Of a stretch of 33,448 nucleotides of DNA, positions 15,001 to 18,000 are shown in pieces. The position numbers were made by a program. The stretch comes from a virus (Duplodnaviria; Heunggongvirae; Uroviricota; Caudoviricetes), in IMG/VR virus record IMGVR_UViG_648028025_000008. One strand, 5' to 3'. The first letter of the stretch is position 1; the number at the start of each line of letters is the position of its first letter.

Positions 15001-18000
15001 CAAACAAAACCCGCCCACAAGCGGGTTTTGTTGTGCCACTTATCTCGGATAGACATGGTGAATGCGCTGGTGGAGGAGATAAGGGTGATTTTTGTATGCT
15101 TGCAACATTGATTTCGTAACGTTATTATCCTGCGCCCGGCCCTTTAGCTCAGTGGTGAGAGCGAGCGACTCATAATCGCCAGGTCGCTGGTTCAAATCCA
15201 GCAAGGGCCACCAACCGCCACTAGCCATCAGGAAAGAGCGTCAACCCTTTAAGTTGAGTGTGCGAGGTTCGAGTCCCCGGTGGTGGTCCATTATCGGTAT
15301 TCTGCGTTGTTAGCTCAGCAGGACAGAGCAATTGCCTTCTAAGCAATCGGTCACTGGTTCGACTCCAGTACAACGCGCTACACTTATTTTCCCGGCTCGC
15401 TTTTGCGGGCCTTTTTTGTATCTGCGCCACGCCCGGCGCATACCAACCACAGAGCCTTTCGGGGGGGGGGGGGAGCTTACGGAGTGGTCAGTGTGACTTT
15501 CTCTGTGGGCAGATCGCTCCCGGGCGTTGGCTCACCCACCCAAAGGAACGTCACGATGTTTGGTATTTTTGGTAAAAAAAGCCCGCAGAGCGGCAACGGA
15601 AATTAAAAAGTTTGAAAAACGCGATCTGGCACAGGTGGTGATTAACGCCGCCTACCTGGTGGCCTATGCAGATGGTGAATGTGAGGCTTCCTAGAAAGCG
15701 AAGATCGAACAGGTACTGCGTAATCAGCCTGCGCTGTACGCGTTTACGTCAGAAATTAATGCGATTAGCGCAACCATTATCGGTCAGCTGGATACGAACT
15801 TTAAAACTGGTCGTCGTGCGGCGTTACGTGAGATCGAGGATGTGAAACACGATACGCGTGAAGCGGAAGATGTGCTGGATGTGGCGGTGGCCATTGCGGA
15901 GGCAGACGGCGAAATTGAGCCGGAAGAGCGCAAGGTGCTGGAAGAGATTGCCGGTGTTCTGGGTCTTCGTCTGGAGAATTACCTGTGACGGTAAAACTGC
16001 GCCTGACTGTGGCTGCACTCCTGCTGTTTCTGGTGGTGATGGTGGATTTCACCAGCAGAATCATGTCGGTGCTGGCGGATGGGGTGCTGGTCTGCGGCAT
16101 TATGGTATTGCTGTGGCCGGTGATAAAAAGAAACAGCCTGCATAATGCTTGATTTTTTTGTTTGCTGTTTATTAAAAACACTTCTGCATGGTGAATCCCC
16201 CTGTGCGGTGGGGCAATCAGCAAGAAGGAATATGGGGTAATCGCGGATTCAGGTGCTGATACTGAATTCACCGGGAGGCACCCGGCACCATGCTTTGCCA
16301 CAAAAGTGTTATTTCTGTTTTTCTCAAACTATCATCGTTATCCCTTTATTTTCGGCTGCGCATGGCGCGGCCTTTTTTTTACGACCAGCCACTGGCAGAT
16401 GGTCATCCTGTGATTTGATTCCGCTTCCGGCTTTTTAACTCTGTTCCTCTACACGGGAGAAATTCGATGTCGATTAAACATTACGATGTTATCAGGGCGG
16501 CGTCGCCGTCAGACCTTGCGGAAAAGCTGACACACAAACTGAAAGAGGGCTGGCAGCCATACGGCGGACCGGTTGCCATTACGCCGTACACACTGATGCA
16601 GGCGGTGGCTATTGAAGGAGAGCCACAGGTCGGCCCTTCATCTGAGCCGGATTGGTACTACGTCATCGTACTGGCCGGGCAGTCCAATGCCATGGCTTAC
16701 GGTGAAGGGCTTCCGCTGCCGGATTCATACGATGCTCCGGATCCGCGCATTAAACAGCTGGCGCGCCGCAGTACAGTTACGCCGGGTGGGGCTGCCTGCA
16801 GATATAACGATATTATTCCGGCCGACCACTGCCTGCATGATGTGCAGGATATGAGTACGCTGAATCATCCGAAGGCAGACCTGAGCAAAGGGCAGTACGG
16901 CTGTGTCGGCCAGGGGTTACATATTGCCAAAAAACTGCTCCCGTATATCCCGAATAACGCGGGGATCCTGCTGGTACCATGCTGTCGTGGTGGTTCGGCA
17001 TTTACCCAGGGCGCGGAGGGGACATTCAGTGCGGACACGGGGGCCAGCCAGGATTCGGCGCGCTGGGGTGTGGGTAAACCGTTATATCAGGACCTGATTG
17101 CGCGCACCAAAGCTGCATTACAGAAGAACCCGAAAAATGTGTTGCTGGCGGTGTGCTGGATGCAGGGAGAGTTTGACATGAGCGCCGCCACCCACGCACA
17201 GCAACCTGCGCTGTTTACAGCCATGCTGACACAGTTTCGTGCTGACCTCTCCGTGTTTAACGCGCAGTGCCATGGTGGCAGTGCTGCAGATGTGCCGTGG
17301 ATTTGTGGTGACACGACGTATTACTGGAAAAATACCTACGGCACCCAGTACAACACCATTTACGGGGCGTACAAAAACAGGGAGAGTGAGGGCGTTTATT
17401 TTGTGCCCTTCATGACAGACGGTAACGGCGTCAATACCGCCACTAACGCGCCGGCAGAAGATCCGGATATTCCGGCATCAGGATATTACGGTGCGGCATC
17501 GAGAACGAATGGAAACCAGGTATCATCAAACCGCCCGACACATTTCAGTTCATGGGCGCGCAGGAGCATTATTCCGGATCGTATGGCAACCGCTATTCTG
17601 AACGCAGCCGGGCGCACCTCAGCCTTCATCAGTGGTAAGGCACCGGAAATCAAACCCTCGCCCGGCGGCAACACGCCATCGGGTCCGTCTGCAGATACGT
17701 CCGTTCGCACAATCTCCCTGCTGCCGGCAGCCGGAGAGGCTGCTGCGCAGGGCTGGAGCATTAAGGATGGCGGAATTCAGTTGTCAGATGGTGTATTTAA
17801 GATCACCAAGCAGAGCAATAAAACCTGGTCCCTGACGCATCCGGTGGATGACGCAATTACCCTGCTGACACAGGGCGGCAGACTGACCTGTAAGTTCCGC
17901 CTGTCAGGCGCACTGACCAACAATCAGTTCGGGCTGGGGATTTATCTGTATACGGATGCTCCCGTTCCTGATGGTGTGGCGATGACGGGTACCGGTAATC

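Follow-up and report, generated by a model that had tools for sequence, protein, structure and literature searches.

Why does a prophage carry an uninterrupted run of 13 G residues in front of a TerB-family gene, and is that run real, unstable, or of consequence for the gene behind it? We addressed this question in IMG/VR virus record IMGVR_UViG_648028025_000008, a stretch of 33,448 nucleotides (nt; hereafter the window) that is a lambdoid prophage integrated beside ompW. The tract, c-GGGGGGGGGGGGG-a, comprises exactly 13 G at 15461-15473 on the plus strand (C13 on the minus strand). The original prediction, made from the sequence of the window, described this run as very unusual and proposed that it was a slipped-strand hotspot, a G-quadruplex element, or a sequencing or assembly artefact. 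Based on comparison with homologous loci, the tract is a real mononucleotide repeat that probably originated by a T>G substitution, changes length by replication slippage, and drifts neutrally in this prophage.

Tract identity and length polymorphism

All five G9 matches in the window, counting either strand, fall inside the 15461-15473 run, which is the sole G/C run of at least nine bases; 100 dinucleotide-preserving shuffles of the window averaged 0.13 G9 matches, with fewer than five in every one. G13 at this position is far beyond chance, and the description of the run as very unusual was borne out. Its placement between a tRNA cluster and a TerB-like start codon was also correct: the ATG at 15556 lies 82 nt downstream of the tract.

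At least 36 complete Escherichia coli genomes of serogroups O26, O111, and O103 share with 100% identity a 1061-bp stretch that includes G13 (15100-16160), and over this tested kilobase the window is also 100% identical to E. coli E2865 and to many genomes of O26, O111, and O103. The genomes that share the identical G13 come from Japan, the USA, Korea, and Australia, and from many laboratories; the near-identical genomes 1056-1 and 1074-2 agree on tract length, and the tract also occurs in independent IMG/VR contigs, as G11 and G12. Because many laboratories obtained the same G13, in at least 36 genomes altogether, the tract is not an artefact, and that part of the original prediction is refuted as to the existence of the run.

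To compare lengths among strains, we used a 151-nt query centred on the tract, which matched 797 records at 2104 places (median of 3 places per genome), and we took lengths from a sample of 60 chosen at even spacing, in which full-length matches spanned 143-154 nt. The commonest sampled length corresponds to G13 in the prophage version found in O26, O111, and O103, and to G10-G11 in O157:H7, for which match lengths were 147-151 nt; tracts of G9, G10, and G11 were read directly in O157:H7, and lengths up to about G13 in that serotype come from match length only. Among eight loci that were fetched, seven have identical or near-identical flanks and carry G16, G15, G11, G10, G9, G7, and G5, and the tract alone explains every length difference among them; the eighth, a relative with 85% identity, carries G6. 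The comparison with orthologous loci that the original prediction had proposed thus returned lengths from G5 to G16 across E. coli strains, and homologous loci taken together carry G5, G7, G9, G10, G11, G13, G15, and G16.

These lengths also bear on whether the run, or at least its length, could be a product of sequencing or assembly. Homopolymers this long are error-prone, and two near-identical O157:H7 genomes from one study differ by 1 base (match lengths of 149 nt in Z1766 and 148 nt in Z1769). Against this stand the same G13 in at least 36 complete genomes, near-identical pairs that agree among them, and the presence of the tract in independent IMG/VR contigs; the 12-base range from G5 to G16, together with commonest lengths that are specific to lineages, is therefore beyond platform noise. 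We regard an artefactual origin of the run or its length as extremely improbable, and a one-base technical error in any single assembly could be excluded only with reads.

Interrupted and uninterrupted alleles

We sorted 120 IMG/VR prophage contigs that contain the left flank of the tract by allele. In 41 contigs the sequence is TTTC-G5-T-G-AG, with exactly G5 in every case, and in another 56 it is TTTCA-G4-T, always with exactly G4. The remaining 23 contigs lack the interrupting T and carry G5, G6, G7, G11, or G12. The interrupted form is therefore kept at constant length in 97 of the 120 prophage copies, whereas the 23 uninterrupted copies vary from G5 to G12. A second set of 80 loci, which was reached via the TciA protein and partly overlaps the 120 contigs, included interrupted alleles G5TG (58 loci), G4TG (2), and A-G4TG (8), and uninterrupted alleles G7 (1), A-G6 (7), and A-G11 (1). 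The relatives in this second set are all 97-100% identical, and they provided allele counts but were of no use for structural covariation.

The interrupting T appears to be ancestral, because the corresponding U is paired with A in a conserved RNA helix in 35 sequences (see below), whereas all 16 uninterrupted sequences have G.A at that pair. Uninterrupted alleles occur on three different leader backgrounds, so either the T was lost repeatedly or the allele was moved by recombination. As judged from the sequences, loss of T on several backgrounds would fit a recurrent misalignment-type mutation; transient misalignment within runs yields substitutions at run ends.

Under the model that we favour, the tract site ancestrally carried G5-T-G (or A-G4-T-G), and a T>G substitution would have fused two short runs into G7 (or G6). 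The uninterrupted run would then have gained and lost G residues by slipped-strand mispairing during replication, to reach the present G5-G16. The rate of slippage climbs steeply with run length, and G/C runs are the least stable. The slipped-strand hotspot of the original prediction is supported by this comparison, as lengths range from G5 to G16 between the same or nearly the same flanks and the interrupted alleles are constant.

The cassette downstream of the tract

The gene downstream of the tract is tciA (15556..15988, plus strand), which is followed by tciB (15985..16152, plus strand), a gene for a small membrane protein of the DUF3927 type (PF13064, E=1.7e-16); the names are those used for the two small genes in phage JLK-2012. 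The TerB-like label given by the original prediction is correct, based on a Pfam TerB match to an intact relative (E=2.9e-16), but the prediction did not mention that tciA is a pseudogene in the window. An in-frame TAG at 15692-15694 interrupts the gene, and the ATG at 15556, itself preceded by a good Shine-Dalgarno sequence, is thrown out of the TerB reading frame by an A7 run at 15574-15580. In relatives that have A6, or TTCAAAAAGAAAA, in place of A7, the tciA ATG is in frame. RefSeq annotates the identical locus as “tellurite resistance TerB family protein, internal stop.” RefSeq also starts tciA at ~15560 rather than 15556, including in O157:H7, where the gene is called intact.

Both the internal stop and the out-of-frame ATG are found in the window and in the whole O26/O111/O103/O55 lineage, and the lineage with the stop-bearing tciA shows tracts of G5, G7, and G13-G16, which speaks against selection through tciA in that lineage. 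In O157:H7, an open tciA reading frame occurs together with G9-G11 tracts. Because tciA is already dead in the window (A7 frameshift and TAG), the length of the tract there is most probably drifting neutrally.

Stx2 phages match a query that starts at 15100 only over its positions 1-329 (window 15100-15428), which comprise the tRNAs and a terminator, and this similarity ends at ~15428; the tciAB cassette therefore occupies the stx slot. The G13 tract lies 32 nt inside the left border of the cassette.

Leader RNA and candidate regulatory roles

The tract sits within a conserved leader of ~130 nt (15424..15555, plus strand) that runs from the tRNA terminator to the tciA start codon. An alignment of 51 distinct leader variants has a mean column identity of 83% and contains long invariant blocks. 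The 5' end of the leader would form a small hairpin, GCGCC-ACGCCC-GGCGC (helix 1; 15424..15439), with 97.6% of cells paired. It is followed by CCACAGAG (15447..15454), which is complementary over 8 pairs to CUCUGUGG (15501-15508); this pairing is a possible pseudoknot or alternative helix. Both of its strands are identical in 51 of 51 sequences and hence carry no covariation information. Immediately upstream of the tract, CCUUU (15455..15459) is complementary to AAAGG (15542-15546) of the ribosome-binding site; this helix 3 is 100% paired, has four of five pairs invariant, and also appears in the minimum-free-energy fold of the window sequence. An inner helix (helix 5; 15481..15520) pairs GGAGUGGUC (15481-15489) with GAUCGCUCC (15512-15520) and encloses CUCUGUGG, and three of its pairs change on both sides (e.g., columns 69-104, with A-U in 33 sequences and G-C in 14).

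The tract itself falls in the 5' strand of helix 4. The ancestral sequence CCUUUC-GGGGGUGAGC is complementary to GCUCACCC-A-CC-C-AAAGG beside the ribosome-binding site, and the 3' partner of GGGGGUGAGC, followed by the Shine-Dalgarno sequence, is found at 15530..15547 as GCUCACCC-A-CC-C-AAAGGA. In 29 sequences pair 52-127 of this helix is A-U, and in 20 it is G-C. The 35 interrupted alleles have U-A at pair 57-121, where the 16 uninterrupted ones, among them that of the window, have an unpaired G.A; the change that produced the tract would therefore have damaged the helix as well.

For the structure as a whole, 97.1% of cells are paired, compared with 39-50% in controls that slide the partners by 1-3 columns. 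Changes on both sides occur at four pairs, and the covariation score is 0.107 versus 0.084 in shuffled alignments (0 of 500 reach the observed value), although the alignment holds only about five sequence types. RNAalifold prefers a competing helix between CGCCCGG (15430-15436) and CCGGGCG (15520-15526), in which one pair is compensatory (C-G in 36 sequences and U-A in 14). The fold of the window leader (-58.3 kcal/mol; z = -1.42 relative to shuffles) is not significant alone. Using Rfam 15 with E values up to 5, we found no match to the leader as a whole, and chance-level hits clip only its 5' edge; the matches above gathering threshold in the searched region are two tRNAs and STnc100 only. 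The conserved tciA leader might be new, which is not established.

This position raises the possibility that the tract is a phase-variable or rheostat-like contingency element, whose length would tune tciA translation through sequestration of the Shine-Dalgarno region GCUCACCCACCCAAAGG by the 5' strand CCUUUC-Gn-AGC. In its favour, the conserved long-range helix whose 5' strand contains the tract also takes in the CCUUU:AAAGG pairing at the ribosome-binding site, the structure is 97.1% paired against 39-50% for the slid controls, and column pairs 52-127, 69-104, and 70-103 show compensatory changes. A nested thermodynamic model predicts that AAGGA is unpaired with a mean probability of ~0.5 for G5UG or G5-G8 and of ~0.2 for G11 or longer, and O157:H7 keeps an open tciA frame together with its G9-G11 tracts. 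In the lineage of the window (O26/O111/O103/O55), however, such an element has nothing to regulate, because tciA has an internal stop and an out-of-frame ATG. The long tract is also derived and rare, as 97 of 120 prophage copies are interrupted; the leader fold has a z of only -1.42, the covariation comes from about five sequence types, and RNAalifold differs. Nor does the tract lie in a reading frame or between promoter hexamers: it is 82 nt upstream of the ATG and in no plausible open reading frame, and a consensus scan of both strands over 14900-16500 found no sigma-70-like promoter that overlaps it, which led us to reject a role as a promoter spacer. The only plus-strand promoter-like sites in that scan are at 14926-14954 (after the antiterminator gene Q) and 15100-15128 (before the tRNAs). 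Of the features of a contingency locus, then, the window has an uninterrupted, length-variable repeat, and it lacks both a position in a frame or promoter spacer and a functional gene under control. We consider regulation of tciA by tract length improbable.

Several points weigh against neutral slippage as the account of the tract. Every sequencing platform is prone to errors in long G runs, and assemblies only were compared, such that part of the one-base scatter may be technical. G13 is common to three serogroups, so the instability falls short of producing differences in every isolate. The tract is also located in a conserved and probably structured leader, in which runs of G11 or longer are predicted to lower accessibility of the ribosome-binding site; based on this model, a regulatory effect might still operate where tciA is intact, e.g., in O157:H7. 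We retain a T>G origin with subsequent slippage as the probable explanation of the tract.

The original prediction had also raised a G-quadruplex-forming element, and a functional quadruplex, of DNA or RNA, could affect late transcription or translation. Runs of 11 G or more could in principle make two tetrads, and three tetrads with single-G loops would be within reach of the G15 and G16 alleles. The 13 G of the window can be divided into no more than three G3 runs separated by single-G loops, where 15 G are needed, and no other GGG lies within 7 nt (GG only). The canonical motif, (G3+N1-7)x3 G3+, was accordingly rejected for G13 on sequence, and the G15 and G16 alleles would satisfy this rule. 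As the long tract is not conserved and the ancestral state is G5-T-G, the quadruplex proposal is weak, and we judge a functional quadruplex here to be very unlikely.

Insertion and deletion at the tract

The similarity of PPompW prophages to the window breaks off within the tract, and ISEc20, an insertion sequence (IS) of the IS110 family with a length of 1459 bp (LC567822, 3863-5321), comes next. ISEc20 abuts CCTTTC-G6/7 in LC567822 and its relatives and in 22 complete genomes; because nearly all of the 22 are O145 or O145:H28, this junction is probably the result of one ancestral event. On its other side, ISEc20 abuts G5-ATCATCCGGCG; in intact relatives, a second G tract, located upstream of the gene for the terminase small subunit, comes before this sequence. 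This second tract, CTGTGACCCGCCCC-Gn-ATCATCCGGCG (~11787-11825 of locus L034), is polymorphic from G7 to G13, like the leader tract. The ~8.5 kb between the leader tract and the terminase tract, with tciAB, nanS-p, and lysis genes, is missing at the ISEc20 locus. In contig L159 (minus strand, ~6985), the two tracts are fused cleanly as G5 with ~8.5 kb deleted and no IS present. The tract is thus a demonstrated site of IS insertion and of deletion in relatives of the window.

We then examined the flanks of ISEc20, which 1815 genomes carry, at other sites. Among 30 distinct flank pairs, ~19 have C4-C8 directly after the 3' end of the element and 6 have CGTTA[CT] there instead of a C run; readable 5' flanks mostly end in CCC or more. 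Two empty sites contain native C runs: C10 in a nanS-p paralogue (L098), and C9 in an alpha/beta-hydrolase gene, where joining the two flanks reproduces the empty allele with 100% identity. A third empty site, in yecD, reads CGCCCTCACCG and has no homopolymer, and it is an unexplained exception to a simple homopolymer-target rule. For the L269 site, our search found no empty site. Since ISEc20 is often found in C/G runs, the C13 that the window carries on its minus strand, in which no IS sits, is a plausible ISEc20 target. This homopolymer preference might be new and is not established.

The nanS-p paralogue in L098 has a coding G10 run (~1284) that encodes WGGGKP, compared with WGVGKP encoded by GGGGTGTGGG in the window, and was made by T>G changes. 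In another contig (L266), ISEc20 sits in the G10 run of the nanS-p paralogue.

The 5' untranslated region (UTR) of ISEc20 contains CUGCCCCCAG and CCGGGGGGUG, with C5/G6 segments, inside a stem, and the next stem-loop contains GGUAAC and AAUAGGGG, which match the IS ends. Assigned by eye, this layout resembles that of the bridge RNA of IS621; Rfam returned no match for ISEc20.

An alternative emphasis, then, is that the tract is chiefly a recombination substrate, both a bridge-RNA target of ISEc20 and a microhomology end point for deletions, which would promote loss of the late and lysis region. Such a role would follow from the tract without having been selected, and slippage can stand beside it as the explanation of tract length. 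The presence of ISEc20 in the tract in 22 complete genomes, where it joins the leader and terminase tracts, argues for this role, as do the clean fusion in L159 without an IS, the C runs at ~19 of 30 flank pairs, the two empty sites with native C10 and C9, and the bridge-RNA-like 5' UTR. Against it, the leader locus provides one ancestral insertion event only, the yecD empty allele is CGCCCTCACCG and six sites have CGTTA[CT] on one side, and the bridge RNA was assigned by eye and lacks an Rfam match. On balance, we treat this as a possible account that we hold tentatively. A broader scheme, in which G/C runs of prophages that are fused by T>G changes and lengthened by slippage become bridge-RNA-specified landing pads for ISEc20, would link expansion, which makes the target, to deletion of tciAB, nanS-p, and lysis genes by the IS or by tract recombination, and thereby to the fixation of effector-carrying prophages; as a whole, we find this scheme rather unlikely. 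If it is true, target choice by a bridge recombinase that is guided to homopolymers would be unusual for the IS110 family.

Wider gene content of the prophage

Upstream of the tract, a NinG-like gene and RusA precede the antiterminator gene Q (14247..14942, plus strand; Phage_antiter_Q, PF06323, E=1e-90). By analogy with lambdoid phage biology, Q-modified polymerase would transcribe through the tRNAs and the tract. The cluster, on the plus strand, contains tRNA-Ile2(CAT) at 15138-15213 and tRNA-Arg(TCT) at 15304-15378, both supported by tRNA calls, RefSeq, and Rfam, with a degenerate tRNA-like copy between them at 15215-15290. This middle copy is argN in O157 and Stx phages and is identified by ARAGORN as tRNA-Lys(ttt); the Rfam tRNA model and RefSeq make no call. 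The cluster ends in an intrinsic terminator-like hairpin and T run (15394..15419; hairpin at 15394-15411) on the plus strand.

Downstream of the cassette, an Rfam match to the small RNA STnc100 (16157-16329; 100.8 bits versus a gathering score of 47) sits between tciB and a gene for a nanS-p-type esterase (16467-18320), and lysis genes follow. The window prophage is degraded and rich in cargo (9165-11516 and 20800-31300), with a frameshifted DUF1627 gene, a fimbrial gene, and the paa adhesin; past the lysozyme gene are nleA (frameshifted), nleH1-2, nleF, nleG, espM1, and IS remnants. The window prophage lacks terminase and head genes.

Discussion

The G13 tract provides a clear case of how hypermutable tracts arise, in that one substitution drops an interrupting base and instability follows; to our knowledge, E. 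coli has few mononucleotide tracts of the contingency type. As a strain-variable and often multi-copy homopolymer of prophages in enterohaemorrhagic E. coli, the tract can give rise to one-base differences, spurious or real, in assemblies, in pipelines for single-nucleotide polymorphisms or core-genome multilocus sequence typing, and in annotation, and it could serve as a fast-evolving marker within the O157, O26, and O111 lineages. The long run also makes the prophage vulnerable, in that ISEc20 has inserted there and a deletion that removes lysis genes ends there, which bears on the fixation of prophages that carry effectors (nleA, nleH, nleF, and espM1 in the window). The leader RNA of tciA and the apparent targeting of homopolymers by ISEc20 are two leads, both unproven. 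In the open-access literature, we found no description of the tract or of target choice by ISEc20; PMC12078548 treats a different homopolymer, in espW.

The tciAB cassette is comparable to the cargo (“moron”) cassettes of lambdoid phages in the Q-tRNA-stx position, as tciA and tciB lie between the tRNA cluster and the nanS-p and lysis genes in the same way as stxAB. It differs in that the cargo is a TerB-family gene and not a toxin, and a promoter of its own was not found in our scan. The leader shares with Shine-Dalgarno-sequestering operators and riboswitch-like leaders an anti-Shine-Dalgarno CCUUU ~85 nt upstream of the Shine-Dalgarno sequence, alternative helices, and a possible pseudoknot, whereas no Rfam family was found here, covariation is sparse, and the helix in the window is damaged by the G.A mismatch and extra G residues.

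In the IS621 paradigm (the subject of Durrant et al. 2024, PMC11208160, and Hiraizumi et al. 2024, PMC11208158), a bridge RNA reportedly recognises the target sites of IS110-family elements. ISEc20 is alike in its IS110 annotation, in its sequence-specific sites without obvious duplication, and in having segments that match its own ends and flanks; however, its apparent target is a homopolymer and not a complex 14-nt site, yecD does not fit, and the guides are putative.

With the contingency loci of Neisseria, Haemophilus, Campylobacter, and Bordetella, the tract has in common an uninterrupted G/C run of at least nine bases, length differences at identical loci, variation that fits slipped-strand mispairing, and instability once the run is uninterrupted. 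It differs from them in lying outside a reading frame or promoter spacer and upstream of a pseudogene, and its variation is known here from consensus assemblies. The intergenic mononucleotide microsatellites of E. coli, which are used as neutral markers, are likewise non-coding, polymorphic between strains, and probably neutral, although the present tract is far longer (13-16) and resides on a mobile, multi-copy prophage. The tract is therefore best filed as a hypermutable intergenic microsatellite that is prophage-borne and has a traceable origin.

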